Shown in pieces: positions 1,548-26,787 of a DNA stretch of 64,000 nt. This DNA comes from a virus. Taxonomy: Duplodnaviria; Caudoviricetes. A program made the position numbers and the translations under genes. The stretch is taken from IMG/VR virus record IMGVR_UViG_3300042397_003635, one strand, 5' to 3'. A model generated the notes under the pieces. That model was not told the DNA's origin and did not search any database. It worked only from the letters and a program-made list of their open reading frames with translations. Within the stretch, counting starts at the first letter, position 1; every line of letters begins with the position of its first letter.

Positions 1548-2899
1548 TATTTAGTTTTTAGATTCTTCTTTAATTCTGCAAGATCAGTTCTGTACATATC
1601 GATTGGTGCAGTTTTCTTTACTGTTACCAATTCTGCAGATTTCTCTTTAACTTCATTTACTAACTGTTCGTATTTCTCTTTGGTTAAAGTTTGAATTTGC
1701 ATGCTCAACAAATAGTCAAAGCTAGAATTAATGCGGTCAAATTTTAGTTCTTCTAATTCGGTAACAATTTCTTGTTTTGGACGATTACCTAATTTAAGTT
1801 TACCATCAATAATCATCTTAATAAATCTAGCTCTATTTGAAAGATACACTAAATCCTTTTCTAAACTATCGATTAAGTAGGCTTTACGTTTATCATAATA
1901 GGTTAACCGGAATTTTACAAAGTATTCTACTAATTCAGGTAAAGCTGTAAATATTTTAAGCTTACCTCTTTCATCTAGACAAGTTAAGTTTTCGCTTTCT
2001 GTTTCGACTAATTTAAGAGTAGATTCTAATCTATCCTTTGCAATTAATTCTGAAAGTTTTGCTCGTTGAAACTTAAGAGTATACGAAATTCCATTTGAAC
2101 AATTATCTTCGTATGAAAAGATAATTCCTTTTTCTTGCAGAGAATTTAAATGGTTCTCATATTTTTGAAATGTCATTGATGGAGGCAATTCTGTAATTTC
2201 AACAGTTGTAGTATTAACTACTCGAGCAACCCCTTTAAATTGATATTGGTTATCTCCAATTCTAGAGATTGGCCCATTGAAATCCTTAAACCATGGTAAA
2301 AGTTCTCCGATTTTTTTACCATCTAAGACTTTGGTACAAGCGTCGATTAATTGAACCGGATTCCGGTTTAAGATATTTGTTGCAAATCCTACAGCAATAC
2401 CCGAACTTCCATTTAGGAGAACTGTTGGAATAATTGGTAGGAAATATTTAGGTTCGATTTCATTACCCTCTTCGATTTGAGAAGTTAAGAGCTCAAAATC
2501 TTTATAGAGTAGTCTGAAATTTGGAGTTAGCTTAGTTGAAATATAACGAGGGGCTCCAGCTTCTGGAGAACGTAGCGATCCAAACTGACCGACCTCATCT
2601 AATAGAGGAAGCGAGTTCTTAAATGATTGAGCCATTCCAATAATAGCTCCATTAAGGGATCCATCTCCATGATGATAGTGAGCATCTGCTGCAATTCTAC
2701 CACCCAATTGAAATATCTTTAGAGGTTTATCATTAGAACCTTTCCAAACTTTATCTGCAATAAAAATAATTTTACGCTGAGTTGGTTTAAATCCATCTAT
2801 TACAGAAGGAATTGCCCGATTCTCAAGAGTATACATACCATACATTGCATAGTCTTGATCTAAATATTCGGTTACTGTTTTATTATTTACTTTTATCAT
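1547..2899 (-). CDS. DNA topoisomerase II, GyrA/ParC-like subunit (T4 gp52-like)
   Basis: RAIPSVIDGFKPTQRK, YHHGDGSL, AGAPRYI (catalytic Tyr), PTVLLNGSSGIAVGFA. Confidence 0.95.
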   Translation of the reverse strand: MIKVNNKTVTEYLDQDYAMYGMYTLENRAIPSVIDGFKPTQRKIIFIADKVWKGSNDKPLKIFQLGGRIAADAHYHHGDGSLNGAIIGMAQSFKNSLPLLDEVGQFGSLRSPEAGAPRYISTKLTPNFRLLYKDFELLTSQIEEGNEIEPKYFLPIIPTVLLNGSSGIAVGFATNILNRNPVQLIDACTKVLDGKKIGELLPWFKDFNGPISRIGDNQYQFKGVARVVNTTTVEITELPPSMTFQKYENHLNSLQEKGIIFSYEDNCSNGISYTLKFQRAKLSELIAKDRLESTLKLVETESENLTCLDERGKLKIFTALPELVEYFVKFRLTYYDKRKAYLIDSLEKDLVYLSNRARFIKMIIDGKLKLGNRPKQEIVTELEELKFDRINSSFDYLLSMQIQTLTKEKYEQLVNEVKEKSAELVTVKKTAPIDMYRTDLAELKKNLKTK

Positions 2900-4022
2900 A
2901 GCTTAGTATTAATTTACCAACATAGAATACAATTGAACCCAAAATTACGCCTATTGCTAAATTATGTGTAACCACCGAAACTATAATTGTAGAAACGGTT
3001 GTTGTAAAATATAAAGGATTCTTATTAGTTAAACTGCGCCAATCTCCAGTTTCATATACAACAATTAGCATAACTCCAATTAGGCCAGCTAACGGTAACT
3101 GTTCTATATAGTTACCAAACACTAGAATTATTGAAATTAGCCCAACTGCGGCAACTATTCCAGATAGTCTGTGCTTTGCGCCAGCTCCAACATTAAGATT
3201 AGTTTGACCGACTAATACGCAACCGCCCATTGCTCCAAACAGGCCGCTTATAATATTGCCTAGACCTTGGGCAAATGTTTCTTTGGCTTTGCTGCCAGTT
3301 TCATTTAACTTATAAGATACTGAATCGACTGTCAATAGAGATTCAGTTAGACCTGATATTGCCATACCAAAAGAATAGGGCAACACAGTTAAGATTGAAG
3401 CTATTGTTATTTCGGGTAGGTTAAAACTTGGCAAGCTTGCCGTAACTGGCGAAAGATCACCAACTGTTGATAGCCCAAGTGGTATGCCAATAATACAGCC
3501 AGCTGCGATAGCAATAAGGGCTGGTGGAAAACTGAATTTCTTAGCTGACCACCACATTACTCCTGAACAGACTGCAACTGTTACTAACGTTAAACTTAGT
3601 GTTGCTGTACTGGGCAAGCCAACTGACAAATACCTGAATTGACTAGTAAGAATCATAATAGCTAGTGCAACCAAAAACCCTGAAATTGCGGATGGCGGAA
3701 TTTTGCCAAATATTTTCCAAGCAGATGTTGACCAAATTATAAGTTGAATAAGTCCTGCTACAATAACTCCAAGGAAAAGCAGATCCATTCCAGATTTTGC
3801 AACAAGACCTGCCATAATTACAGCAGTTGCACCAGTTGCACCAGAAATAAGACCAGGTCGACCACCAAAAATTGCAGTAGATAACGCCATAAATACAGCA
3901 GCCCATAATCCAACTTGAGGAGCTGCTCCAGCCAATAGCGCAAACGAAATTGCTTCAGGCACAAGTGCAACGGCAATAGTTAGACCCGATAAAATTTCGG
4001 TTCGTGTTTGAGATAATTGCAT
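2883..4022 (-). CDS. SulP-family inorganic anion transporter (membrane domain only, no STAS)
   Basis: LSGLTIAVALVPEAISFA, FGGRPGLISGATGA, AMGGCVLVGQTNLNV; many TM segments. Confidence 0.9.
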   Translation of the reverse strand: MQLSQTRTEILSGLTIAVALVPEAISFALLAGAAPQVGLWAAVFMALSTAIFGGRPGLISGATGATAVIMAGLVAKSGMDLLFLGVIVAGLIQLIIWSTSAWKIFGKIPPSAISGFLVALAIMILTSQFRYLSVGLPSTATLSLTLVTVAVCSGVMWWSAKKFSFPPALIAIAAGCIIGIPLGLSTVGDLSPVTASLPSFNLPEITIASILTVLPYSFGMAISGLTESLLTVDSVSYKLNETGSKAKETFAQGLGNIISGLFGAMGGCVLVGQTNLNVGAGAKHRLSGIVAAVGLISIILVFGNYIEQLPLAGLIGVMLIVVYETGDWRSLTNKNPLYFTTTVSTIIVSVVTHNLAIGVILGSIVFYVGKLILSYDKSK

Positions 4023-5857
4023 TAAAATGAAAGTTTAAGTAGTTTCTCTTTTCTTGGTGCAGAGTCGTTACCAAACCAATCTTCAAGAGACTGCTTGCTC
4101 TGCTTATCATTTGTTAACTGAACTAGATTTGGATTATGAATAATCTCACGATACTCATCATCTTCTAGAGCGGCAAGACCTTTTTTGTATTCAACATTCC
4201 AGCCAGTCATTTTAGTTTTAGCCTCCCATTTTAAGTAATCTTCTGCAGTATAGAATGGAACAATATCCTTTCCTTTTTTTGCAACAACTAACGGAGTCAT
4301 AACTTTAAAAATCTTTCCTTCGTTAACTAATTCTGGCCAATACTTATTAAAAAAGTTAATTAGCAATGCAGCAATAGAATCTCCATCTGGATCTGCATCA
4401 GTATAGATTAAGATTTTATTATATCGCATGTCCTTAGGATCTTCGCCAAGTTTAATTCCTAGCGATGCCATTAATTGAACGACTTCGTCATTTTTAATAA
4501 CATCACTGTTTTTCATTTCGCTTACATTAAGGAATTTACCTTTAAGAGGAAATGCGCCAAAAACTTGAGGATCTCTAAACTTACGAACAGCCGAAAGTGC
4601 AGACATACCTTCAAATATTCCAAGCGAACATTTATTGCGGTCTTTACCTTTAGCATCAATTAATTTAAGAACTTTAGTTGTGGCTAAAGATTTATTTAGT
4701 TTACGTAATTCAGCACGCTCTTCAGCTTGTTTCTTTTGTTGAATCCAATCCAATAAAGACTCAACTACTTCTGATGTAAAAACCGCCTTTGCAAATTTTT
4801 CAGAAACTGTGTGAGCCGTTCCAAATTCTTTGGGTTCGGTAATTAGCTTCTCTTTAGTTTGTGAAGAGAACGCTGGATTAATTACTGTACAGTTAATGAA
4901 TAAGAAAACATGATTACGGATTTCCGAAGGTTTAACTTCAACCTTATGCTTCTTTTTAATTAAGACTCTTAAGTCTTCAATTACCTGATTTAGGATATAG
5001 TTCTCATGGGTTCCACCATCTTTAGTTTCAATTGAGTTAACAAAAGAAATAGATTGATACCCATCTTTTGAATGACCTACTGCAAATTCCCAATGCTCGC
5101 TCTTTTCCCAAATAGGATTTTGAACATAGAGCTCAACATATTCTTTAAAGTTTTTAAATCTAAATTTCTCTCCATTAAATTCTAACTTAAGACCAGGATT
5201 TGCTGCTGCAATATCAATAACACGTTTACGCATCATTTTAATATGAGCTTCATCAAGAGCCTGCATTTCAAATCGGCTAAGGTCTGGTTCATATGAAATT
5301 TCGGTAAAACCTTGATTTGACGCAGATGTTTTAGCATCGCCTTTAACTGACATGTTTTTAGTAAAGAGCTGAACATATCTCTTTTTACCATCAGCCGTTT
5401 CAATCTTAAACTTATTAGAAAAGATATTTACTAGTGATGCACCAACACCATTGGTTCCAGCAACAGTTCTGCCTTCTTCATCATTAAAATTTGAACCGGC
5501 TCTAAGATTAGAGAAGATTAATTCGGGAATCCAAACTTTATGTTCTGGATGCTGAAGAACTGGAATACCTCCATTGTCCCAAACTGAAATAGAGTTGTCT
5601 TTAACTACAACTTTAATTTGGTTAATTTTGCCTGAGCGTTTATGCTCATCGACTGAGTTTGAAATAATCTCATCGAATAACTTTAGAAAGCCGGGATTGT
5701 AAGTCAATTCCTCTTTCTCATACATACCATCTTTTAAGATCCATTCCTGACTTGTATGTGGTTTAGTTGAACCAATATACATGCCAGGTCTTTTTAGGAC
5801 GTGCTCGATCTCATCAAGCAGCTGGTATTTCTTACTAATTTCTTTTGTTGATGCCAT
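4022..5857 (-). CDS. DNA topoisomerase II, GyrB-like subunit (T4 gp39+gp60-like fusion)
   Basis: EHVLKRPGMYIGS, EIISNSVDE, GTNGVGASL (GHKL ATPase), EGMSA, PLKGK, TDADPDG (TOPRIM). Confidence 0.95.
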   Translation of the reverse strand: MASTKEISKKYQLLDEIEHVLKRPGMYIGSTKPHTSQEWILKDGMYEKEELTYNPGFLKLFDEIISNSVDEHKRSGKINQIKVVVKDNSISVWDNGGIPVLQHPEHKVWIPELIFSNLRAGSNFNDEEGRTVAGTNGVGASLVNIFSNKFKIETADGKKRYVQLFTKNMSVKGDAKTSASNQGFTEISYEPDLSRFEMQALDEAHIKMMRKRVIDIAAANPGLKLEFNGEKFRFKNFKEYVELYVQNPIWEKSEHWEFAVGHSKDGYQSISFVNSIETKDGGTHENYILNQVIEDLRVLIKKKHKVEVKPSEIRNHVFLFINCTVINPAFSSQTKEKLITEPKEFGTAHTVSEKFAKAVFTSEVVESLLDWIQQKKQAEERAELRKLNKSLATTKVLKLIDAKGKDRNKCSLGIFEGMSALSAVRKFRDPQVFGAFPLKGKFLNVSEMKNSDVIKNDEVVQLMASLGIKLGEDPKDMRYNKILIYTDADPDGDSIAALLINFFNKYWPELVNEGKIFKVMTPLVVAKKGKDIVPFYTAEDYLKWEAKTKMTGWNVEYKKGLAALEDDEYREIIHNPNLVQLTNDKQSKQSLEDWFGNDSAPRKEKLLKLSF

Positions 5858-5905: not shown

Positions 5906-6010
5906 CTAAGCAATTAGCCAGGCAATGAGTTTACCCCAAATAAAGCCACCGATAAGTAGGACGATTATCCAAGTAATAAGGAAGGTCCAGTTGTATTTTT
6001 TCCATTTCAT
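5906..6010 (-). CDS. Small membrane peptide (34 aa; not in ORF track)
   Basis: Read manually: MKWKKYNWTFLITWIIVLLIGGFIWGKLIAWLIA. Confidence 0.5.
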   Translation of the reverse strand: MKWKKYNWTFLITWIIVLLIGGFIWGKLIAWLIA

Positions 6011-6052: not shown

Positions 6053-6078
6053 AAATAGGGAGTCTGGGCTCCCTATTT
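6053..6078 (-). terminator. Rho-independent terminator after lipoprotein gene
   Basis: AAATAGGGAG-TCTGGG-CTCCCTATTT hairpin with T-tract on the minus strand. Confidence 0.7.
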
Positions 6079-6096
6079 AAATTATAATAGATTAGG

Positions 6097-7305
6097 TTAA
6101 AATCCCTTTACTGGAAATCTGGTCCAGCCATTAGACCAACTAGGCTTTGCAAGCGCATCCATTTCTGATTTAGTATATGATTTTTCTACAGTACCTTGGC
6201 TTAGGGCTTTGGCTTTAACTGAGTCAGAAGTCATAATTGAAGTTGCCTTACTAATAAAATTTAAAGAAGGATCAAATGCCTGAACTTCATTATTTAAAAA
6301 TATGCTTGTTCCATTTTTGTAGTGTTGAACTGTTTCAGTTGATTCCATACTAAAACTACCTTTTTGATAACCCAATACTTTAGAGTTAGTCATTGTAAAT
6401 TGAGTGGCTCTTCTAAATCTTAAACCTAGATTATGATTGGCTAGTGATCCAGCATCAAATGGCCCAATTAAAATTACATTATCTAACTTTGGATGGGTAG
6501 TTGGAATTGCAGCAGAACCTGTTCCATCATTATCGCACTCAACTCCATTTCCAGCATCGCCATTATCTACAAATTGTGGATCTCTTTTTGATGCTGAATA
6601 TGAAATAGTACCTCTATATCCAAAATCGAAATCGAAATCATCGTCAGCTGTTGCAAATGCATATAGGTTTTTTGCATTAACAGTTCCGCCGAAAAATTCA
6701 AAGGCATCGTCATTTGCATAGACCGTTTGAATATTCTCAAGGATTGTTCCACTACCAACTCCACCTAAGGTTAAGGCATTAATTTCTGAATTTGGCATTG
6801 CTGCAATACCAGCATATTCAATTCTTACATATTTTAAAATTCCAGAATTATCATAATCATCAGATCCACCGAATGGTCTACCAATACCGCCTTCAATTGT
6901 TGGTTCAGATGTTCTATTTGTGGTGGCTTTACCTAATATTACAATACCACCCCAATCGCCTGGAGAACGTTGACCAATTGGTTGACCGGATGTAAATACA
7001 ATTGGTTTGGTTGAAGTACCCTCAGCAATAATTTTTCCGCCTCTTTCAATACAAAGAGCTCCCTTTTCAATAAGATCGCTTTTTATAATTGTGCCAGGTT
7101 GAATAATTAATTTAGCGCCATTTACTACATAAACATATCCTTTAAGAATCCATTCTCTATCTGAAGTAAGAGTTACGGTTTGAGTTATGTTTCCTGTAAT
7201 AGTATTGGTAGATGGAACTCCAATTGGATCGTCTGCTCCGCCTAAATCTTTTTCGCAGCTCATTAAGGTTAGAGCAGAAATTAAAGTTAATAAAATCTTT
7301 TTCAT
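6097..7305 (-). CDS. Beta-helix lipoprotein of the family that accompanies TonB-dependent receptors
   Basis: Lipobox LMS-C; PGDWGGIVILGKA, DNSGILKYVRIEYAG, INALTLGGVGSGT, DDAFEFFGG. Confidence 0.75.
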   Translation of the reverse strand: MKKILLTLISALTLMSCEKDLGGADDPIGVPSTNTITGNITQTVTLTSDREWILKGYVYVVNGAKLIIQPGTIIKSDLIEKGALCIERGGKIIAEGTSTKPIVFTSGQPIGQRSPGDWGGIVILGKATTNRTSEPTIEGGIGRPFGGSDDYDNSGILKYVRIEYAGIAAMPNSEINALTLGGVGSGTILENIQTVYANDDAFEFFGGTVNAKNLYAFATADDDFDFDFGYRGTISYSASKRDPQFVDNGDAGNGVECDNDGTGSAAIPTTHPKLDNVILIGPFDAGSLANHNLGLRFRRATQFTMTNSKVLGYQKGSFSMESTETVQHYKNGTSIFLNNEVQAFDPSLNFISKATSIMTSDSVKAKALSQGTVEKSYTKSEMDALAKPSWSNGWTRFPVKGF

Positions 7306-7311
7306 AGTTTT

Positions 7312-9798
7312 TTAAATTTTTAAAGTTAGTGAAATTGAAATATTTTTTTCATTTTTAATATTGATTAGATCGGCCGATCTATTATGTTGAAAAAACCTAG
7401 AGTCTTGTGATAAAATGTCTGCTATTGATAGTTTTATTTCGCCACTCTTTATTTTTTTAATAAGAACTAAATCTAAAATATCTCTAGCATTTTCATAAAT
7501 ATCTGGATAACCTTGAAAACCTACGGCTGAAATTCTTTCGCCAATTCGATTATATGTAATTGATCCAGATAAGGTACCTTTATTGATAGTTGCACCAGCA
7601 TTAATAATATATGGAGACTGTCCTTGTAAAGGTCGAGTTTGACCTCTTTCGGTTACAGTTGAAATTATTCCAGAAACATTTGAATATAGAGTTAACCACT
7701 CTGTAACCTTTTTTCTGGCATCTACTTCTATACCAGCTACAATTGCTGAGGCTGGATTTGAATATGTCATTAAGAGATTTGATGGAACTGACCCAGCATC
7801 AACCACCAATTCAATCGGCTTATTAAAGTGTTTTGCAAATACTCCAACCGAAATATTCTCTCCATTTTTTGGATAGCGTTCAAACTTAAAATCAATATTA
7901 CTAACCTTTGTTCTTTCTAAATTTGGATTGCCTATTATTTGAGCACCTCTTATAAAATCATAATAAGCAAAATTAGCAATCTCTCTAAATTCTGGTCGAG
8001 CTAAGGTTTGACTTGCAGCAAATCTAATTTTATTTTTATCAGTAAGCGAATAGGTTATATTTAAAGATGGTAGTATGTCTAAATAGTTTCTATTAATTAC
8101 TAACGCGGCTCCTCCAAAATCTGCAGTATTAACTGAAAATTGATTGTATTCTGTTCTAATACCTGCATTGATTTTTAAATTATTAAAAGTTGAATCGAAC
8201 ATTACATAACCTCCAACTAAATCAAATGCAGCTGAATATTTGTCAGTATTATTTGTAATCTCATTTAATAAATCGGCGGCTTCATATCTAAAGGTTCGGG
8301 CTTTAAAGTGTCTTAACTTTGTTAAGTATGATCCACCAAATTTTAATTGTTTAACTGAATAATTAGCTGAAGCATTTATTGAATTTTCGTTCATTACACT
8401 CCAAAATCTATAAGTATCTCGCCATACAGTTGAAAAATTATCAGAGGTTCCCAATGATTTAGCTAATGGCTGAACTCGATAATCTGGTTGATCTCTCAAC
8501 ATTAAGTTATATCCAAGATTAAAATCAAACCTATCTTTCTTAAGATCTATTTGTGAATTTAAAATAGATTTAATTATATGGTTAGAGACTTCAGACGAAA
8601 TATTCTGCATATTGTCATAGTTTTCACCAAACCTTTTTAAATAATTAGATTCAATATTTCTATTAAAAATATTCTTAAATCCAATTCGGGTTTTTCCAAG
8701 ATACGTTAGATTAAGAAGGCCGTTTATTGATTTAGTATTTGTAAAAGAAAGATCTCTATAATCGTATGCAAATTCAGTTGAAGAAAAATATTCTTTTCTG
8801 GTAATAGTTGAAGTTGAATTGGATTCTCTATAGTTAGAGCTTAATATAATATTAAGTTTCTTTTTAGTATAACCTCCAGCCAAATTAAAGGTTGAATTTG
8901 GAAGAGCTGTTGTAAAATTAGCAGATGGATTTGCAATAAGAGTAGTAAAATATTTTCTATCTGAAATATCGCTTAGTCTAAATTTATAAATGGATGGAAA
9001 ATTGGTTGGAAAATCTACTTTGGCAATTTGACCAACTTCCTTAAATGTAGTAAGCGTTCCAATTCCAAATGAAGCTCCACCAGAAATAAAATTATCACCA
9101 GCTTCCTTTGTTGTTATTTGAACTAATCCACCTGAAAAATCTCCTGGTAAATTGGCAGCCGCTGATTTAATAATAATTAGATTGTCAATAAGTGCAGTTG
9201 GAATAATATCAAACGAAAATGAACGACGATCGGGTTCAGTTGAAGGTAGTGGAGTCTTGTTTAGCTGAACAGAATTATATCGGTCAGCCAAGCCTCTAAC
9301 TAAAACAAACTTGTCATTTTGTATAGTTACGCCACTTACTCGCTTAAGTGCATCGCTTACGGTTCTGTCTGGAGTCTTTTTAATTGTTTCAGAAGAAATA
9401 CCATCTGCAACTGGCGTACTGTTTTTTACAATATTAATAACAGAAGCGGCTGATTCCTTTTTAGCAATACCCCTTACCTCGACTGCGCCAAGCGTTTGGG
9501 TTATTTCTTCTAATTCAAAATCTATTTGGGTTGGGCCTTTAATAGAAACTTCTTTAGTTAAAGGCGTATGTCCAATATAGGATGCCTTAGCTAAATAGGA
9601 TGACTCAGATAAAAAGAGTTCATAATATCCGGTCGTTGATGTAATAGCTGCGTCAGTTTTACCGGTTGTAGAATTTGTAAACTGAACTACGACTCCAATT
9701 AGAGTATCGCTTTTAGATTTAACAAAGCCACTGACTTTGGTTTGGGAATAGGCTAGGGTTGGTAGTATTACCAAGGCTAGCAGGAATAATCTTAACAA
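7312..9798 (-). CDS. TonB-dependent outer-membrane receptor
   Basis: Signal peptide; carboxypeptidase-regulatory-like N-domain; plug ALKRVSGVTI..VLVRGLADRY; FSFDIIPTALID; LARPEFRE; TTG start. Confidence 0.9.
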   Translation of the reverse strand: MLRLFLLALVILPTLAYSQTKVSGFVKSKSDTLIGVVVQFTNSTTGKTDAAITSTTGYYELFLSESSYLAKASYIGHTPLTKEVSIKGPTQIDFELEEITQTLGAVEVRGIAKKESAASVINIVKNSTPVADGISSETIKKTPDRTVSDALKRVSGVTIQNDKFVLVRGLADRYNSVQLNKTPLPSTEPDRRSFSFDIIPTALIDNLIIIKSAAANLPGDFSGGLVQITTKEAGDNFISGGASFGIGTLTTFKEVGQIAKVDFPTNFPSIYKFRLSDISDRKYFTTLIANPSANFTTALPNSTFNLAGGYTKKKLNIILSSNYRESNSTSTITRKEYFSSTEFAYDYRDLSFTNTKSINGLLNLTYLGKTRIGFKNIFNRNIESNYLKRFGENYDNMQNISSEVSNHIIKSILNSQIDLKKDRFDFNLGYNLMLRDQPDYRVQPLAKSLGTSDNFSTVWRDTYRFWSVMNENSINASANYSVKQLKFGGSYLTKLRHFKARTFRYEAADLLNEITNNTDKYSAAFDLVGGYVMFDSTFNNLKINAGIRTEYNQFSVNTADFGGAALVINRNYLDILPSLNITYSLTDKNKIRFAASQTLARPEFREIANFAYYDFIRGAQIIGNPNLERTKVSNIDFKFERYPKNGENISVGVFAKHFNKPIELVVDAGSVPSNLLMTYSNPASAIVAGIEVDARKKVTEWLTLYSNVSGIISTVTERGQTRPLQGQSPYIINAGATINKGTLSGSITYNRIGERISAVGFQGYPDIYENARDILDLVLIKKIKSGEIKLSIADILSQDSRFFQHNRSADLINIKNEKNISISLTLKI

Positions 9799-9898
9799 AT
9801 GATGTCAATAGATTTTTTTCAATATTATCTATTGAGAGCTGTCTATCAAGATCAGTAAATTTAGATTAACAAATTATTATCAAATTGGAATATTAGTG

Positions 9899-10165: not shown

Positions 10166-10531
10166 TCAATTACTGTGGAGGCCTTTTAGGATAAGGCGTG
10201 CACAACTTGGATTAGTTGCAAGTGGGACATTGTGTACATCACAGATTCGCATTAGCATCTGTACATCGGGTTCATGTGGATGGGCATCAAGTGGATCCCT
10301 AAAAAATATAACTGCCCCGATTTCTTTTTCTGCAACTTTAGTTGCAATTTGAGCATCTCCACCCATAGGACCAGACAGGACCCGAGTTACCTTGAGTCCT
10401 GCCTGTTCTACGAATTTTCCGGTAGTGCCGGTTGAGATAAGATTAATTCCATCTAATGCTTCACGGTTTTCCATTAGGAATGCAACCATTTCTGCTTTTT
10501 TGCCATCGTGTGCAATTAGTGCAATTTGCAT
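10166..10531 (-). CDS. mgsA: Methylglyoxal synthase
   Basis: IALIAHDGKK, STGTTG, SGPMGGDAQI, DPLDAHPHEPDV, PLATN; start moved to MQIAL at 10531. Confidence 0.95.
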   Translation of the reverse strand: MQIALIAHDGKKAEMVAFLMENREALDGINLISTGTTGKFVEQAGLKVTRVLSGPMGGDAQIATKVAEKEIGAVIFFRDPLDAHPHEPDVQMLMRICDVHNVPLATNPSCARLILKGLHSN

Positions 10532-10536
10532 GTTGT

Positions 10537-10740
10537 TTAGTTCTGTTTTTCTGTTACTAACCATGTGTTTATTACTGCGCCAAACATGTCTCGATTACTC
10601 TTGGCATGTTGGAATCTTTGACTTGCTCTAACTGCGCATTTTTCGCGCTGCTCGACTACAAGTTTCTCAGCTTCAGCAACTGTTAAATATCCTGCCTTTT
10701 TTGCAAGACTATCCATCAGTTCTCTTAACTTTCTTTTCAC
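10537..10740 (-). CDS. Hypothetical protein
   Basis: 67 aa ORF in operon. Confidence 0.5.
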   Translation of the reverse strand: MKRKLRELMDSLAKKAGYLTVAEAEKLVVEQREKCAVRASQRFQHAKSNRDMFGAVINTWLVTEKQN

Positions 10741-11166: not shown

Positions 11167-11706
11167 TTAATCACGTTTTATTTCAATTTTATGTTTTTCA
11201 CCATTTGCCATTGAATAAACTGCATGACTTGGATGGATTTGATATTCCTTACCTTTAAATTGATCCGCATATTTTTTACCCATACCTTTTTTAATATAGG
11301 CGACTGTCATATGAGGATGATAGTCTGGAAAGTCTGATGTAAAAGGAAACTGCTTTAACTTAGTATTAAGTTCTGATAATTGATCGCCTTTAATATCAAA
11401 CTTTAAGACATCATACTTATCATTCTCAAATAGAGATGGGTTATGTGCCTTAACTGTTGTGTAAGTAGGCTCGCTAACAATTGGTTCAACCTTATCTAAG
11501 CCAACATTATTATGTAGACCATAAAGTAGTGTTACATGAGGTTCATCCTCTAACCCAAATGTTTGATCTTCTGGATCCACATACACATCATCGCGATCGA
11601 TTTGACCATGCAATTCTGACATTTGCGGAAAATCTAGATAAAGCATTGCACATGAAAAATCATAAGCTGCTTTCTTTTCATTAATAAAATCTTTAATTGT
11701 TTTCAT
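11167..11706 (-). CDS. 2H phosphoesterase, T4 gp57B/Acb1 (anti-CBASS nuclease)-like
   Basis: Two HxT motifs (EPHVTLLY, YHPHMTVAY); SDFPDYHPHMTVAY resembles T4 Acb1 HDFDDYTPHITLSY; capsid-targeting-like start MKTIKDFINE. Confidence 0.75.
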   Translation of the reverse strand: MKTIKDFINEKKAAYDFSCAMLYLDFPQMSELHGQIDRDDVYVDPEDQTFGLEDEPHVTLLYGLHNNVGLDKVEPIVSEPTYTTVKAHNPSLFENDKYDVLKFDIKGDQLSELNTKLKQFPFTSDFPDYHPHMTVAYIKKGMGKKYADQFKGKEYQIHPSHAVYSMANGEKHKIEIKRD

Positions 11707-11720
11707 TTTATATTTTAATT

Positions 11721-12221
11721 TTAACAGAATTCAGTTGAGCTTGAAACTCTTAGTCCATCAATTTCACGATCAGCATAGGCTTTCCAATTATTTCCTAAGT
11801 AGTGTTCCTTATCTCTCATGTATGCTTCGTCAGCGACTAATCCATCAGGTTGACCCCATTCCATAGCCATTTGAATAAACTCATCAGCTTCAAATTCTGT
11901 TCCATACTCATCAACTACTCTACCACTCTTAATAAACTTAAGTAGAGTTTCTTTATTGGTGTAATATCTTTCACCATTAAAATTCCAGCAGAATTTCCAA
12001 CCACTTGACCTTTTACCTAAGTGAATTAGAGTTTGATCACAGAACTCGTCCCATGGAGATTCGTGTTCCCATACATAATCAGAATCATGAGTAGGAATTG
12101 TAGAAAATCTACGTTCAATATTTGAAGGTGTCATCTCTAATTCCTGAATACGCTTAGCTAATCTAGCTTTACGCTCTTCCATTTCTTGTTCAGTTGGAAT
12201 TCTGTAATAGTTAGTTCCCAT
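11721..12221 (-). CDS. Hypothetical phage protein
   Basis: MGTNYY...IHLGKRSSGWKFCW...VVDEYG. Confidence 0.65.
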   Translation of the reverse strand: MGTNYYRIPTEQEMEERKARLAKRIQELEMTPSNIERRFSTIPTHDSDYVWEHESPWDEFCDQTLIHLGKRSSGWKFCWNFNGERYYTNKETLLKFIKSGRVVDEYGTEFEADEFIQMAMEWGQPDGLVADEAYMRDKEHYLGNNWKAYADREIDGLRVSSSTEFC

Positions 12222-12807
12222 TTCCTAAAAATTTTAAAATTGATTCTTTGACCCCACTTTGTTTTATTCCTTCTCTTGATTTTGGAGTTAAGACAAAATT
12301 AGAGAGACCCCAATCTCTATCCATATCTCCCCAATCTGGATCTGTGTATGGCGCTCCCATATTTAAATCGTCGACTGCAACCCAATGTGTTATTTCTGGA
12401 TGATCGATTAAGTATTGCTTGATTTCAATTGCGCGAGTCTGTTCTAAATCCCATTTAGGCGCCCAAACAAATGTACCTGCATTATACCAATTACACTCAG
12501 CCAGATTTGGAGTATATGCAATTGGTTTTTTAATAATACCTTTTGCCTCATAGTATTCTCCCATCTCTTCTACATTTGCCCAACGTTTCCAATCTGAACT
12601 AACTACAATTTCTGCTCCAGTTTCTTGCAAAATTTCATTTAAGACTGCGACTGCTTTCTTATTGAAATTATCAAAACGTGCATCAACAGATAATGACAAA
12701 ACAGATTGGCTCAGTTTTCGGCCAGCCTTTTGTTGCTTCTTAAATCTACCGCCCCATTCAGTTGCTAAGCAAATTACTCCATCATGATCTAAAAATATTA
12801 CTTTCAT
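12211..12807 (-). CDS. HAD-family protein (Swiss-army-knife RNA-repair-like, HAD_SAK_2)
   Basis: MKVIFLDHDGV, IVVSSDW, WVAVDD. Confidence 0.8.
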   Translation of the reverse strand: MKVIFLDHDGVICLATEWGGRFKKQQKAGRKLSQSVLSLSVDARFDNFNKKAVAVLNEILQETGAEIVVSSDWKRWANVEEMGEYYEAKGIIKKPIAYTPNLAECNWYNAGTFVWAPKWDLEQTRAIEIKQYLIDHPEITHWVAVDDLNMGAPYTDPDWGDMDRDWGLSNFVLTPKSREGIKQSGVKESILKFLGNGN

Positions 12808-12815
12808 AGTTTGTA

Positions 12816-13394
12816 TTAATAATATAAATCTACTAATGATTGGTTTAAGATTGCAATAGCCTTATCTGCAAGATCATCCGTTAGACCAGTTGGGTGCTGA
12901 GTTTTAATAAAATGTTCACGTTGTCCATATAACATATCCGAATCATCGTCTAAAATAATATAGTTCTTAACTATGGCTTTATCAATATGCTCGATTTGTT
13001 TCTCTTCGCTCCAATTAATTCTTTGAAAATCTCCATGATTATCTAACCACCAGTCAATTTCACAACCTCTTGGCATTCGGTATCCATCAAATTCTTCATA
13101 TGGTTTTTTACACCAAAGATGAGGTGTTACTCCAATAACTTCTCCAACAATACCAACTTGATCAAATAGCCTTTGTAAAGATTCGACAGTTTCGCCGCTT
13201 CTCCAACTTGAACTAACTACAATTTTAGCATCAGTTTCCTTTATAATTCGGTTTAGTCTCTCAATTGCACGGGGATCAAATTCATAGAATGGATATTGTG
13301 CATTAACTGAATCCATTTCAACCACATCTCTACGATAGACATACCAATCCTGTGAATTTAAAACTCCATCTATATCTAAAAATATTACTTTCAT
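12816..13394 (-). CDS. HAD-family protein (HAD_SAK_2), tandem paralog
   Basis: MKVIFLDIDGVLN, IVVSSSWR, RGCEIDWWL, YIILDDDSDM. Confidence 0.8.
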   Translation of the reverse strand: MKVIFLDIDGVLNSQDWYVYRRDVVEMDSVNAQYPFYEFDPRAIERLNRIIKETDAKIVVSSSWRSGETVESLQRLFDQVGIVGEVIGVTPHLWCKKPYEEFDGYRMPRGCEIDWWLDNHGDFQRINWSEEKQIEHIDKAIVKNYIILDDDSDMLYGQREHFIKTQHPTGLTDDLADKAIAILNQSLVDLYY

Positions 13395-22743: not shown

Positions 22744-23136
22744 TTAGATTTTTGTAAATTTAACACCAACTCCTAGGGTAGTATGGTCAACTGATTTACC
22801 ATTAGCAAGATCAGGTAAGATTTTGGTTAGATCGTCATACTCTACCGTATATGGATCAACGCCGCCCTGTACAGTACGACCAATTTGCATGCCGCCGTCT
22901 CCTAATTTCTTAAGCCAATTAAAATTAATTGCATATTGGTTATTAAGAGCAACTCCAATTATTTTGTAATTAAATACTTTGCCAGCACCGTTCTTAACTG
23001 CAATTGCATTGCCGCCTTTGTCCGCTGCCTTTGAAATAGTAGCCTTTACTGGATTTGCCCAGCTAATTGACCCTGGTCCAGGTACAGCTACATCAGCATC
23101 TTCCCGTAACCAACCTTCAAACAATTTTACCCACAT
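22744..23136 (-). CDS. Putative internal head protein
   Basis: MWVKLFEGWLRED; late promoter at 23159-23167. Confidence 0.6.
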   Translation of the reverse strand: MWVKLFEGWLREDADVAVPGPGSISWANPVKATISKAADKGGNAIAVKNGAGKVFNYKIIGVALNNQYAINFNWLKKLGDGGMQIGRTVQGGVDPYTVEYDDLTKILPDLANGKSVDHTTLGVGVKFTKI

Positions 23137-23158
23137 AATAGAATTAGTCTATTTCTTA

Positions 23159-23180
23159 TTATTTATCCCCCAAATAAATA
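23159..23180. promoter_or_regulatory. Back-to-back T4-late-like promoters
   Basis: ttatttatc (minus-strand GATAAATAA) and AATAAATA (plus) separated by 5 bp between divergent genes. Confidence 0.65.
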
Positions 23181-23202
23181 GCTATAACAAGACCATTATA
23201 CT

Positions 23203-23832
23203 ATGAATCATAACTATTACTATATCCTCTTAGGAAAAAAGGCAGGTGGACCGGGTACCCAACCCACATCTAACTGTTCGGACTCTCTACAATTTAGATA
23301 CTATTCAATTAATACTCCAGCTGGCCAAAGTGGCGATTGGTATTATGGTATATCGGATCCAGATCCTGCGCTTGCCTGGTCAGGTCTGGTCTTTGGCGGA
23401 ATCGTTGAGGTATGGGCTTCAACTCAAGTCCTAGAGGTCGGTACAAAACTCTATACGGACCAAGCCCAAACCCAAGAAATAAGGGCAGTAGATGACGGTG
23501 CGCAATTCAGGATAGAGGCAAATCTCTTTACCTATAAGGTTGGGCTTGGTATTATGGCGATTACCCAAATGGCTGAACCCCCTGATATTCAAATCAGGAT
23601 GAGCGGACCGGAGCCTGGTTCCTGTGCCCTAAGCGGACCCTATACCCAAACCGTATGGGTTGCCAGGGACCTGTGGCAGCAAGTTGACCGGGTATGGCTA
23701 GACCCTGCCCTAACCCAGCCCTATGTAGGCGGTGATAACTGGTACTATGCTGATGATACTACTATTCCAGCAGCCGGTACAACCTTACAGATTAATAACT
23801 GCGGTTGGGTTATTGGCTTCTATGCTTGCTAG
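23203..23832 (+). CDS. Putative structural/tail-associated protein with internal repeat
   Basis: Two related Trp/Tyr-rich modules (VWASTQVLEVGTKLYTD / VWVARDLWQQVDRVWLD); late promoter upstream. Confidence 0.45.
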   Translation: MNHNYYYILLGKKAGGPGTQPTSNCSDSLQFRYYSINTPAGQSGDWYYGISDPDPALAWSGLVFGGIVEVWASTQVLEVGTKLYTDQAQTQEIRAVDDGAQFRIEANLFTYKVGLGIMAITQMAEPPDIQIRMSGPEPGSCALSGPYTQTVWVARDLWQQVDRVWLDPALTQPYVGGDNWYYADDTTIPAAGTTLQINNCGWVIGFYAC

Positions 23833-23846
23833 TTCTAGGCTTTTTT

Positions 23847-23872
23847 CCGCCTCTAAACTTCGAGGGGCGGCT
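23847..23872. terminator. Hairpin terminator, possibly bidirectional
   Basis: CCGCCTCT-AAACTTCG-AGGGGCGG flanked by T-rich runs. Confidence 0.55.
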
Positions 23873-24008
23873 CTTTACCTATAATATGGGTACTGGTATC
23901 TAGACTACTCTTATTTCTATAGATACTATCTCTACTTATATTAATAATAGAAAGAACAAGCCTAACCCTATACCAGCCAGTCTAGACTCTTCTCTATATT
24001 ATACCTAT

Positions 24009-24196
24009 CTCTATATAGACCAGACCCTACCAGACCGGGACTACGGAGTACTCTATATAGACCAGACCCCAGCCAGCCAGTATACCTATAACCGGGACTA
24101 CGGAGTGCCGCCTGCCAGCCGACCCAAAGGAGTCCACTTGGTCCAGCTTAAGGACTACGGAGTGGTGCGTCTCTTCGTCGGGGCCCGCTACGGAAA
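24009..24196 (+). repeat. Direct-repeat cluster (ACCGGGACTACGGAGT x2, CTCTATATAGACCAGACCC x2, ACTACGGAGT x3)
   Basis: ACTACGGAGT at 24040, 24097, 24154 (57-bp period), variant at 24187. Confidence 0.8.
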
Positions 24197-24293
24197 TCCT
24201 CGGGGTCGGGCGACCGCAGGAGAATCGGACATTAGGTAGAAGCTTGTAGACACCGGGCGCCAGGCTGTCTACTAGTCTGGTATAAATAACCTT

Positions 24294-24929
24294 ATGAAGA
24301 AGCAAGACATACCCCAGCCAGACTCTATACCTACTGGCAGTCTGGTATCGCGAAAGATCGCAGCCCAGAGACTAGGTGTAACCTTAAGAACACTAGACCG
24401 CTATATAGAGCAGGGTAAGCTAAGTCCCTATAAGAACAGGGTTAATGGTAGACTCTATATAGACTCAGACCAGATACTCTATCTACTAGGGAGTAGGGTA
24501 CCCCAAGACCGGTTGGTTATAATATATTGTAGAACGGCCCCCATTCCGGACTCTGGAGCCTCGGGAATCTCCAGCGCGACTCGTCTCAAGGAGCAGGTAG
24601 ACAGGGTACAGGGCTATTGTACGGCTAGGGGAATCCGGGTCGATGAGGTAATCCAAGAGGTACGTCGCGCGAATAGACTAGATGATAATGCACCGGGCTT
24701 GAATAAGATTATGGATTTAGTTGTACGCAAGAAGGTCAGTACCCTGATAATAGAGACCCCAGACAGGCTTGCTCGTTTTCTTGCTTGGGATATACTCGAA
24801 CGTGTCCTTATCTATCATGGTGTAGATGTACATATAATCCAGCCCAAGGTCGGGCGGCAGGAATTCGTCGACGAAATAAAGGAAGAATTAGTAGATATAA
24901 TAGCTAGCGCCAAGGAGCTCGGCATATAA
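24294..24929 (+). CDS. IS607-family TnpA-like serine recombinase, apparently lacking the catalytic Ser
   Basis: MerR-like HTH (AAQRLGVTLRTLDRYIEQGKL); resolvase domain IIYCRTA (canonical YARVS), LKEQ, IIETPDRLARF, EELVDII. Confidence 0.8.
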   Translation: MKKQDIPQPDSIPTGSLVSRKIAAQRLGVTLRTLDRYIEQGKLSPYKNRVNGRLYIDSDQILYLLGSRVPQDRLVIIYCRTAPIPDSGASGISSATRLKEQVDRVQGYCTARGIRVDEVIQEVRRANRLDDNAPGLNKIMDLVVRKKVSTLIIETPDRLARFLAWDILERVLIYHGVDVHIIQPKVGRQEFVDEIKEELVDIIASAKELGI

Positions 24930-25285
24930 TTAAAAACTTTAATATAGAGCAGAGTAGTATAGACCATTAGTCCACCTCCCCTAGAGAGAGGTAGGTCGGA
25001 GTATACTCTCCTGGATCTCTATGCGGGGTCCAGCCCTGGTCGGAGTTCTTGTCCTTATACCTATAGCTAATATACCACTTTTCCATGACACTGGACAATT
25101 TTTTTAAATAAAGTTATTAACAATTTCCCGGGCCTCTATTAGGCGGACATTTCTCCAGGGGCCGGGGATCCCCACGGAGCGGGGTGCGTAAAAATACCTA
25201 TGCCCCGTCGGCATGGCCCAGGGGTTTGGGCCTATTTCTATTATACCTATTTCTAATAAATAATTGCAAATAACCCGGTCTAGAT

Positions 25286-25414
25286 ATGGCAGCAAAGAAA
25301 GGCGCTACCGCTGGAACCCCCTTCCGAGTAAAGGTAAAGAAGGTTGGCAAAGCGAAGAAGAGCTTCGGTCCTAAGGAGCAGAAACCTAAGAAGTACGTAG
25401 GACAAGGTCGATAA
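25286..25414 (+). CDS. Small basic late protein ending YVGQGR (42 aa; not in ORF track)
   Basis: Read manually: MAAKKGATAGTPFRVKVKKVGKAKKSFGPKEQKPKKYVGQGR; AATAAATA at 25255-25262. Confidence 0.7.
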   Translation: MAAKKGATAGTPFRVKVKKVGKAKKSFGPKEQKPKKYVGQGR

Positions 25415-25611
25415 GCCCGGGCCCGGGCTCTAGACAAAAAAGAAAGGGACCGCTTGCGCAGATCCCTTTGGGTTAGCTATCGAAACGGTCTAGATTTAAA
25501 TAGCTGGATAAGAACTCCAAGATCTTATACTGGACTACGGAGTACGGTTTTAACTAAAAAAGAAAAAGGCCCTCTTTCGGAGGGCCAGCTTCTAATCAAT
25601 CAATCATCAAA

Positions 25612-26733
25612 CTATATAGTAGCAAACTGTGCTGCTTCTAAATCATAGTTACTCTTAGCGAAGAGACTTCCACCTGCTGCTTTAAAGCGTGCACGGTTTT
25701 CATACTCTTCTACTGTGTTATGGCTACCTAACCAAGTCAACTCGTTAACAAGATCCCATACACTCATACCTGTCTTGATAAAGCTTTTCTGCTTGTCAGT
25801 CAAGAAATCCGGGTTATGACCTGCATTAAATACTCTGGCCATAGTAGACTTGTACATTGGGAAGTGGTTGTCTACTACGCTTTCCTGTAGACGGCGTCTC
25901 ATTTCAGGATCCTCATGTTTAAGGTTACCTACTACGGAGTCCACCGCTCTTTGTACCTCGCTTAGACTTGCTCGTGTACCAGTTGCGCGTTCCAATCTTT
26001 CAGAGAAGGCACGCGGTACAAAACCATTCTTACCATAAGCTTTAAGGGATTGGAATAACTCGGCAATACCTTGAGCATTTGCCTGTTTTAATTGGAAGGC
26101 CGCTGTCATGTCTTTAGCTACTGCTCCATTAGCACATACTAATCTGTAGAAGAAATCATCTACCTGAGTTTGTGTAGGGTTATTCACCAAAGAGATTCCG
26201 AAACGGAAGACCTCGTCTTTACCGATACGTTCGAAACCTACTTCGCTGGTATGGATAAGGTTAATACGGCTAGTGCCGCCACCATTGTCAATAGACTCGA
26301 TATGCATGTCAGGAACCTCGTTAAGGATCTCCTCTGCAGTTTTAAATAGAGTCTCATTAGAGATACGTGCAAACTTGTCAGCTTTCACGATACCTGTTAC
26401 TTCGCGCTGATCGCGGTTAGCGACCATCATAAGAGGAACATCTCCACCTCTACGCTCTGTATAATGTTTAACTGCACCGATAAGTTTATTACCGATTGCT
26501 GCATCACCGTTCTTCTCAAACTTAGAGTTTAAGGTTTGGTTGATGTTAAGTAGGGAAGCCAGCTGTTTGAAAAACGCGCCGCTAGCTGGGACCCTTGAGT
26601 CATTCAAGTGGATGAAGCCATCCTTCTGTGAATTGTCACTCAATTTGATCTCACTTAGCATTACGGGTTTTGTCAGCGGTTCAGACTTGATTGCGGCTGC
26701 TTTTGCCTCGTTGAATTGTGCTTGTGATAACAT
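25612..26733 (-). CDS. DUF932-like protein
   Basis: FRFGISLVNN..FFYRLVCANGA motif typical of DUF932. Confidence 0.6.
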   Translation of the reverse strand: MLSQAQFNEAKAAAIKSEPLTKPVMLSEIKLSDNSQKDGFIHLNDSRVPASGAFFKQLASLLNINQTLNSKFEKNGDAAIGNKLIGAVKHYTERRGGDVPLMMVANRDQREVTGIVKADKFARISNETLFKTAEEILNEVPDMHIESIDNGGGTSRINLIHTSEVGFERIGKDEVFRFGISLVNNPTQTQVDDFFYRLVCANGAVAKDMTAAFQLKQANAQGIAELFQSLKAYGKNGFVPRAFSERLERATGTRASLSEVQRAVDSVVGNLKHEDPEMRRRLQESVVDNHFPMYKSTMARVFNAGHNPDFLTDKQKSFIKTGMSVWDLVNELTWLGSHNTVEEYENRARFKAAGGSLFAKSNYDLEAAQFATI

Positions 26734-26787
26734 ATATTCTATTTGGTTTTTTTGGTTAATATTATTATACTAAAGAGGAGAGCAGAA

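Follow-up and report, generated by a model that had tools for sequence, protein, structure and literature searches.

In Caulobacter crescentus, the lipoprotein ElpS (cc0170), encoded beside the TonB receptor gene cc0171, is surface exposed, is itself no phosphatase, and is produced only when the cells are starved of phosphate (Le Blastier et al. 2010, PMC2996285). In Flavobacterium johnsoniae, the genes Fjoh_0545 and Fjoh_0546 lie in the phoBR cluster designated 'PUSIV' and are induced by depletion of inorganic phosphate (Pi) only, not by iron or nitrogen limitation; the Fjoh_0546 product is a pectin-lyase-fold lipoprotein named 'FII', and ElpS shares 31-36% identity with the related lipoproteins FI to FIII (Lidbury et al. 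2020, PMC8115612). ElpS, Fjoh_0546 and the BT4055/BT4056 pair have been grouped as a transporter-lid family, present in 621 genera, whose 'lids' are not SusD proteins (Price 2023, bioRxiv 10.1101/2023.03.17.533168). The present study concerns a pair of genes of this type in a 64,000-nucleotide stretch (hereafter the window) of the virus record IMGVR_UViG_3300042397_003635 (Duplodnaviria; Caudoviricetes), where the gene for a TonB-dependent transporter is followed by the gene for a beta-helix lipoprotein, both on the minus strand. A preliminary description, made from the letters of the DNA and a list of reading frames, had mentioned that related pairs such as ElpS and its receptor are induced by phosphate starvation; the published work on Caulobacter bears this out, and the F. 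johnsoniae pair behaves likewise.

The comparisons reported below indicate that the window pair is a cassette captured from an Aquirufa-like (Cytophagales) lineage and kept intact, under purifying selection, across a large family of freshwater jumbo phages. The preferred explanation, to which a probability of about 0.6 was assigned, is that it constitutes a host-derived auxiliary gene cassette for phosphorus scavenging, probably switched on by the PhoB protein of the host. This explanation was preferred because of the phosphate regulon context, the retained upstream motif, the conservation of the transport parts, the model of a lid, and the precedent of cyanophages, whose pstS gene is under host PhoBR control (PMC10976474). 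Cyanophage pstS and phoA resemble the window pair in being host-derived phosphorus-acquisition genes that lytic phages carry with host Pho boxes. They differ in encoding periplasmic binding proteins and phosphatases of cyanobacteria, whereas the window pair would provide an outer-membrane, TonB-powered importer with its lid in phages of Bacteroidota, under a regulation that is predicted only.

The phage pair belongs to the family of ElpS/FII beta-helix lipoproteins with dedicated transporters on the basis of shared Pfam family, fold, architecture and gene context, together with published statements. Fjoh_0545 has the same three Pfam families as the window transporter (PF07715, PF13715 and PF14905) and is followed by a pectin-lyase-fold lipoprotein, a likeness by description rather than by alignment; phosphate genes (OprP, for example) and a glycosyltransferase gene are found near these bacterial relatives, as in Aquirufa. 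The window copy differs in that the phage genome around it has neither phoBR nor inner-membrane phosphate genes, and its nearest bacterial relatives are those of Aquirufa, not of Flavobacterium. ElpS and CC0171 share with the window pair the juxtaposition of a surface lipoprotein and a dedicated TonB receptor, and the best NCBIfam match of the window transporter, below the cut-off, is TonB-Xanth-Caul, the Xanthomonas/Caulobacter receptor subfamily. The relationship is distant, however: the Caulobacter pair adjoins a type II secretion system that releases ElpS, none having been found here, and in the window it is the transporter gene that comes first.

Features of a TonB-dependent transporter, namely a signal peptide, a TonB-box-like strand, a plug and a C-terminal barrel, are present in the window protein as judged from its sequence and predicted structure. 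Pfam matches of the 828-residue protein are CarboxypepD_reg, Plug, TonB_dep_Rec_b-barrel and OMP_b-brl_3. Residue Q19, at the end of the signal peptide, is nearly invariant in an alignment of 56 sequences, and the strand LGAVEVRGI aligns with a conserved L-x-E/D-V-V-V-K/R motif of the phage and Aquirufa relatives. In the predicted structure, the predicted local distance difference test score (pLDDT) is mostly 85-93 over the barrel, the N-terminal domain is confident, and the plug is of low confidence. A sequence search of the PDB with the transporter returned only plug matches, to the colicin I receptor Cir, and a search of PHROGs returned no family for either the transporter or the lipoprotein. 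Compared with its relative in locus L002, the transporter is 96% identical in the plug, 76% in the barrel and 53% in the N-terminal domain, the most divergent part; in 40-codon windows, the nonsynonymous-to-synonymous ratio pN/pS of the plug is 0.04-0.11. The N-terminal CarboxypepD_reg-like domain is absent from about half of the phage transporter copies. Those lacking it are of about 747-750 residues (L020, L022, L025, L044, L047 and others); it is present in the window copy and in Aquirufa, and is the fastest-evolving part within the window lineage.

Against the same relative, the transporter has a ratio of nonsynonymous to synonymous substitution rates (dN/dS) of 0.157 and the lipoprotein one of 0.083, values that are approximate, dS being near saturation; the topoisomerase genes, taken for comparison, give about 0.04. 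Both genes of the pair are under purifying selection. Since, in addition, neither frame contains an internal stop, the pair is intact, far above chance expectation. The alignments hold 72 invariant columns for the transporter and 62 for the lipoprotein, and the window proteins share all of them, being rows of those alignments. The TTG start of the transporter comes immediately after an in-frame TGA, the two genes are separated by 6 nt (7306-7311), and the terminator-like hairpin begins 19 nt past the lipoprotein stop; the arrangement originally read from the sequence, an intact receptor of 828 residues, a lipoprotein 6 bp later and a terminator closing the pair, was thus confirmed throughout. 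Scans of the pair region for promoters of the sigma-70 type gave scores no better than those of shuffled sequences, and no promoter was assigned.

The lipoprotein begins with MKKILLTLISALTLMS-C17 (MKK...LMS-C17), and the lipobox cysteine C17 is at least 90% conserved among 73 homologues. The E-K-D that follows it resembles the surface-export signal of Bacteroidota, a likeness judged partly from what is generally known of surface export in these bacteria. It leans as well on the discussion in bioRxiv 10.1101/2023.03.17.533168. The assignment to PF28492 (Beta_helix_4) is a precomputed one carried by homologues that are 88-93% identical; it comes via these close homologues, the model not being in the Pfam set scanned with the window protein. 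The predicted structure is a right-handed beta-helix with a pLDDT of 92.7. When this model was compared with the PDB by Foldseek, no match was obtained at an E-value of 0.001 or below, and only weak, generic beta-helix matches were seen (the pectate lyase Pel9A as the best, and others), with template modelling (TM) scores of at most 0.42; a sequence search of the PDB likewise found no solved relative. ESM Atlas clusters in which 100% of the members are PF28492 proteins matched the model at TM 0.83-0.89, and many of these clusters have type IX secretion tails. Invariant residues of the lipoprotein include an acidic cluster (D199-D200, E203, D221-D223, D225, D227, D247, D250, E256 and D258) and the arginines R298-R299. 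Pfam and NCBIfam scans gave no match of the lipoprotein to the SusD families (PF07980/PF14322), and no SusC/RagA model is among the family matches listed for the transporter; the phage pair would thus be functionally akin to SusC/SusD pairs yet is not a member of that group, its lid being a beta-helix. A tailspike or depolymerase, another candidate for a beta-helix, was ruled out by the lipobox and by the bacterial orthologues, which are always paired with a transporter.

A complex of the two proteins was modelled from the barrel only (residues 225-828) and the mature lipoprotein (residues 30-402). The median of the interface score ipSAE was 0.75 for the pair against 0.01 for the best of three controls; in a calibration, 58 of 80 solved complexes and 2 of 110 mismatched pairs attained this mark. 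Contact agreement between runs was at least 91%, and the pLDDT of the partner at least 91. On the transporter side, the interface consists of long inter-strand loops (337-342, 395-398, 442-463, 504-516, 560-564, 611-620, 667-676 and 762-764), which barrel topology predicts to be extracellular; on the lipoprotein side it comprises residues 131-142, 167-173, 247-251, 260-266 and 289-300, a set into which the invariant D247, D250 and R298-R299 fall. Since residues 247-251 and 298-300 are turned towards the barrel in the modelled interface, the invariant acidic patch (D199-D200, D221-D227 and D247-N259) and R298-R299 are predicted to take part in ligand binding. The model supports a position of the lipoprotein as a lid on the extracellular face of the transporter. 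No solved relative of the lid exists from which the complex could have been memorised. BT4055/BT4056 offers the same lid concept, with the lipoprotein predicted on the outer face of the transporter, and belongs to the same family by the links drawn in Price 2023; few high-confidence contacts were reported in that work, which covers bacteria only, as against the 0.75 (control 0.01) obtained for the phage pair.

Among 80 loci from GTDB, a homologue of the lipoprotein gene lies directly downstream of the transporter gene wherever the flank allows, in agreement with the earlier suggestion that the two-gene unit is typical of bacterial chromosomes. The nearest bacterial copies are those of Aquirufa and other Spirosomataceae (66-70% identity for the lipoprotein, 53% for the transporter), followed by those of Chitinophagaceae (51-63% and 31-42%, respectively). 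Downstream of the pair in Aquirufa antheringensis come an alkaline-phosphatase-like gene, two genes for PHO4 transporters, a phosphate-selective porin gene (Porin_O_P), a glycosyltransferase gene and a metallophosphoesterase gene; PhoU_div is also found among the neighbours of the bacterial pair. Core phosphate genes occur within 10 kb of it in 7 of 8 loci of the Aquirufa group and 26 of 46 loci of other Bacteroidota. The lipoprotein tree unites all phage copies in one clade (96 in the Shimodaira-Hasegawa-like approximate likelihood ratio test, SH-aLRT) that is sister to the Aquirufa clade (95), phage and Aquirufa together being separate from other Bacteroidota (SH-aLRT 100). In the transporter tree, phage and Aquirufa again make up one clade (SH-aLRT 100), with the window lineage as its first branch and Aquirufa nested next to a single phage subgroup. 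Read most simply, the two trees indicate that the pair was captured from an Aquirufa-like lineage and then underwent further exchange, the transporter evolving faster in the window lineage. The Cytophagales relatives point to that group as donors, perhaps also as hosts. The homology searches and phylogenies that the preliminary description had proposed for both genes led to bacterial kin in phosphate gene contexts and to a common clade of phage and Aquirufa sequences.

The direct repeat TGTTA-N6-TGTTA has an 11-bp spacing that resembles that of the E. coli Pho box. Against a background of about 0.008 occurrences per 150 nt, the 150 nt preceding the transporter gene contain a perfect copy in 5 of the 6 loci from Aquirufa and in 23 of the 47 from other bacteria. 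In the Aquirufa loci L007, L097 and L099, all perfect sites but one precede this operon or a PHO4 gene, and in L007 and L099 both PHO4 genes are preceded by one. Because the repeat is shared by the upstream regions of the bacterial pair and of PHO4 genes, it was taken to be a putative Bacteroidota Pho box. The window contains a version with 9 of 10 matches, 69-84 nt upstream of the transporter start, which is one of only three such sites in its 64 kb on both strands. L002 has this repeat at the same position in an otherwise diverged intergenic region, and two distant phage loci, L030 and L049, contain an identical 18-mer. Of 43 non-redundant phage loci, 10 score at least 9/10, compared with 3.1% of the remaining upstream regions of those loci (p = 6.6e-7, a value that overstates independence, the loci being related); 35 of the 43 score at least 8, compared with 36% of the remaining regions. 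Transcription of the pair is weakly hinted at by two metatranscriptome runs whose contigs match the window without differences at 7766-8039 and 9629-9864; these represent small shares of the stretch, leave most of both genes uncovered, and cannot prove transcription or regulation.

The window is phage DNA. Downstream of the pair lie the genes for a T4-type split topoisomerase II (large subunit, 4022-5857; medium subunit, 1547-2899), whose nearest relatives are from uncultured huge phages (55% identity). Upstream are an open reading frame (ORF) of 83 aa and genes for a methylglyoxal synthase, an Acb1-like protein, two HAD_SAK_2 proteins and a nucleotidyltransferase; a sigma factor, an amidase and many ORFs without a family are encoded farther away. 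The order Acb1-like gene, mgsA, 83-aa ORF, transporter, lipoprotein, topoisomerase II recurs in five Joint Genome Institute lake contigs that span both junctions of the pair with its surroundings, and two other studies supply Logan contigs (6675 and 4408 nt) that also bridge the junctions. A host-phage chimera, the possibility raised against the contig in the preliminary description, is ruled out by these independent assemblies across both junctions. Eighteen DNA runs from lake or freshwater samples contain the window stretch (at least 70% of its sampled words). Among virus records, the nearest is G001, a fragment of 142 kb estimated to be 55% complete, which suggests a genome of about 260 kb for the window phage; the pair does not occur in this fragment, which is uninformative either way. 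Relatives with an 81%-identical topoisomerase are complete at about 271 kb.

A scan of IMG/VR yielded 112 stretches encoding relatives of the transporter, of which the best 80 loci were kept and confirmed as relatives. The lipoprotein gene is kept in all 72 of these loci that have enough flank. Other window genes are common to many of the 80 IMG/VR loci and to none of the 80 bacterial ones, and a large terminase is encoded in two pair-bearing records (326 kb and 162 kb) that CheckV rates as 95-100% complete. The closest database relatives of the transporter are of two kinds: copies of 76-100% identity from the lineage to which the window belongs, and a more distant, large set of about 55% identity. 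Three members of the latter were inspected: they come from contigs of 120-280 kb, in each of which a PF28492 protein follows the transporter, and which have genes for a clamp loader, Cpn10, a phage clamp, DUF5856, Lipase_3 and peptidases besides many ORFs of no known function. The pair is kept in more than 40 non-redundant phage lineages at 51-58% (transporter) and 70-77% (lipoprotein) identity to the window, and the closest copies are all in phage contexts, none being bacterial. A further arrangement was noticed in a 635-kb uncultured huge phage (L001; LR745206.1, 77455-81295), where a gene for an ElpS-like lipoprotein (431 residues) lies upstream of one for a TonB-dependent receptor (882 residues). 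The two proteins are 33% and 27% identical, respectively, to those of the window, the gene order is reversed, and a 9/10 TGTTA repeat is found about 90 nt upstream; this pair is probably an independent capture.

If the cassette serves phosphorus scavenging, host PhoB would bind the retained Pho-box-like repeat in a phosphate-starved infected cell and elicit transcription, whereupon the Sec, Bam and lipoprotein-export machineries of the host would place both proteins in the outer membrane. The lipoprotein, seated on the extracellular loops of the transporter, could then capture a phosphorus-containing solute too large or too scarce for porins. Import would be powered by the host TonB-ExbBD system, and the phosphorus gained would feed replication of a genome of about 260 kb, a size estimated from related records.

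Several points weigh against such a role. Transport, a phosphorus-containing substrate and phosphate-dependent expression in the phage are predictions from sequences and models, and the dN/dS values, obtained with dS near saturation, are approximate. Transporter evolution in the window lineage is about five times as fast as that of the neighbouring genes (dN 0.169, neighbours 0.03), and the barrel strand halves farthest from the periplasmic turns are more variable than the others (63% against 75% identity), a variability that would fit an arms race at the surface as well as uptake. The inner-membrane phosphate genes that accompany the bacterial pair are present in none of the 80 phage loci; uptake would therefore rely on host transporters, which may be shut down in the course of infection. 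ElpS, Fjoh_0546 and BT4056 were compared with the window lipoprotein by family, fold and context only. Finally, the phage repeat has only 9 of 10 matches and lies in AT-rich DNA, binding of PhoB to TGTTA in Bacteroidota is itself a deduction, and predicted phage Pho boxes have been found unreliable without gel shifts (PMC10976474).

The fast divergence of the transporter within its lineage (76% identity against 95-97% for flanking genes), the concentration of changes in the distal strand halves, the most variable part of the barrel, and the dispensability of the N-terminal domain in about half of the phage copies would all be accounted for if phage alleles replaced or masked the transporter and lid that the Pho response induces on the host surface, thereby blocking later phages. 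Transporter and lid would in that case be abundant surface proteins that serve other phages, or this one, as receptors. T5 Llp, which blocks FhuA, is a precedent for such superinfection exclusion. This second role had been suggested in the preliminary description next to uptake, and a survey of outer-membrane proteins in huge phages proposes it as well, citing the blocking of LamB by lambda Lom (bioRxiv 10.64898/2026.10.24.761521). However, a mask or decoy could do without a plug conserved at 96%, a TonB box that aligns with relatives and the full set of family-invariant lid residues; dN/dS is well below 1 along the whole transporter gene; and the retained Pho-box-like site would tie expression to nutrient status and not to the stage of infection. 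Uptake, the first of the two roles, was favoured over exclusion because plug and TonB box are conserved, the family-invariant residues are kept, the Pho-box-like site is present and a lid-type complex is predicted; exclusion by itself was judged unlikely, while retaining some weight. Both roles could conceivably be combined in a phosphate-gated surface switch, a rather unlikely arrangement in which a fast-evolving allele would import phosphorus yet be unrecognisable to competing phages. Phosphorus starvation would fill the host surface with transporter and lid, an obvious phage receptor, and the phage would make use of the host's own Pho switch. If true, this would amount to nutrient-dependent superinfection exclusion, and the phage alleles would provide a natural series of variants for finding the substrate of the ElpS family.

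Import of a substrate devoid of phosphorus, such as an iron chelate or another scarce nutrient, was thought quite improbable. TonB-dependent receptors classically import siderophores, the only solved relatives detected by sequence are the plug matches to Cir, and the AT-rich operator was seen to resemble in part Fur boxes of the GATAAT type. On the other side, the orthologous-type pair of F. johnsoniae responds to Pi depletion only, not to iron or nitrogen (PMC8115612), the bacterial neighbours are PHO4, PhoU_div, Porin_O_P and phosphatase-like genes, and the upstream direct repeat with its 11-bp spacing is common to PHO4 genes. It is very improbable that the pair is a neutral passenger, that is, recently transferred host DNA without a role in infection, or an artefact of assembly. 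The genes are clearly of bacterial type, the nearest bacterial lipoprotein being 66-70% identical, but both junctions are spanned by independent assemblies from several studies, the pair has been kept in more than 40 non-redundant phage lineages under purifying selection, and its closest copies are all in phage contexts rather than in bacteria.

Outer-membrane proteins of 22 strands, including a TonB-dependent receptor of a Lak phage, have been reported from huge phages by a preprint survey of October 2026; for the aquatic ones among these phages it points out neighbouring genes of phosphate acquisition, and it favours superinfection exclusion (bioRxiv 10.64898/2026.10.24.761521). The present case differs in that the text of that survey contains no partner lipoprotein (0 occurrences), ElpS/FII family or Pho box. 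Phage TonB-dependent receptors were thus already known from the survey, as were cyanophage phosphorus genes under host Pho control; no description was found in the literature of a complete ElpS/FII transporter-lid cassette in Bacteroidota jumbo phages, of its breadth, of its Pho-box-like site or of its Aquirufa-like origin. Phosphorus is often limiting in lakes, and a genome of a few hundred kb is expensive to copy in terms of phosphorus. Phage genes for its acquisition have so far been mainly those for periplasmic PstS and phosphatases in cyanophages. If phosphorus scavenging is the correct explanation, the cassette would extend this repertoire to the outer membrane, with a complete TonB-powered importer and its lid, and to phages of heterotrophic Bacteroidota, in which the host phosphate switch is apparently retained. 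Being common, with many non-redundant jumbo-phage lineages and occurrences in 18 lake or freshwater runs, it could affect the flow of phosphorus through infected lake cells. It also constitutes a compact, two-gene handle on the substrate of a family found in hundreds of bacterial genera.

Table 1. Position of the two genes, their domains and the flanking signals in the window.
Feature	Coordinates	Strand	Basis
Pho-box-like direct repeat TGATAATAATTTGTTA	9867-9882	minus	9/10 matches to TGTTA-N6-TGTTA
TonB-dependent transporter gene	7312-9798	minus	ORF of 828 aa, TTG start
Transporter signal peptide (residues 1-19, ending ..AYS/Q)	9742-9798	minus	read from sequence
N-terminal CarboxypepD_reg-like domain (residues 22-107)	9478-9735	minus	Pfam
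TonB-box-like strand LGAVEVRGI (residues 103-111)	9466-9492	minus	alignment with relatives
Plug domain (residues 131-222)	9133-9408	minus	Pfam PF07715, E = 1.6e-10
Beta-barrel (residues 225-828)	7315-9126	minus	Pfam TonB_dep_Rec_b-barrel, OMP_b-brl_3
Surface beta-helix lipoprotein gene (ElpS/FII family, PF28492 Beta_helix_4)	6097-7305	minus	ORF of 402 aa
Lipobox L-M-S-C (Cys17), then E-K-D	7255-7266	minus	sequence
Intrinsic-terminator-like hairpin closing the pair	6053-6078	minus	10-bp stem (4 GC pairs) and T-run

Some further genes of the window and of related loci deserve mention. The methylglyoxal synthase gene (10166-10564, minus strand), two genes upstream of the pair and conserved in L002, scores above the cut-offs of two NCBIfam equivalogs, NF003559 (169 bits against 84) and TIGR00160 (163.8 bits against 146.9); its nearest bacterial homologues, 63-74% identical, are from Cytophagales, Saprospiraceae and Flavobacteriaceae. 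This bypass enzyme frees Pi from dihydroxyacetone phosphate, an activity consistent with the phosphate theme. Wedged between the two topoisomerase II subunit genes, and overlapping both, is a gene for an anion permease of the SulP family (2883-4022, minus strand; 379 residues, no STAS domain), whose product could be an inner-membrane partner for anion uptake. It is absent from L003 and L004 and from run X6 (where position 2863 is joined to 4104), and is present in run X8; related jumbo phages with genomes of about 270 kb keep a copy of 56-74% identity, mostly between the same two subunit genes. In locus L092 (13685-15206), genes for a GT2 glycosyltransferase and an LpxH/PlcP-like metallophosphoesterase come directly after the lipoprotein gene, and 9 of the 80 phage loci (L092, L010, L014, L030, L033, L038, L064, L074 and L082) have, no more than 10 kb from the pair, a homologue of the metallophosphoesterase that neighbours it in bacteria. 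These two genes may represent a captured lipid-remodelling module that spares phospholipid phosphorus.

Between the terminator-like hairpin and the topoisomerase gene, an ORF of 34 codons (5906-6010, minus strand) specifies a hydrophobic single-helix peptide (MKWKKYNW...) that is 70% conserved in amino-acid sequence in the relatives L002-L006 and probably represents a genuine small membrane protein. Close by, upstream of the cassette region, lie the gene for the Acb1-like 2H phosphoesterase (11167-11706, minus strand), a candidate to counter the cyclic-oligonucleotide-based antiphage signalling system (CBASS), and the two tandem HAD_SAK_2 paralogues (12211-13394, minus strand). A GC-rich island at 23000-27000 (up to 47%, compared with about 35% elsewhere) contains a gene for an IS607-type resolvase with a MerR helix-turn-helix (24294-24929).

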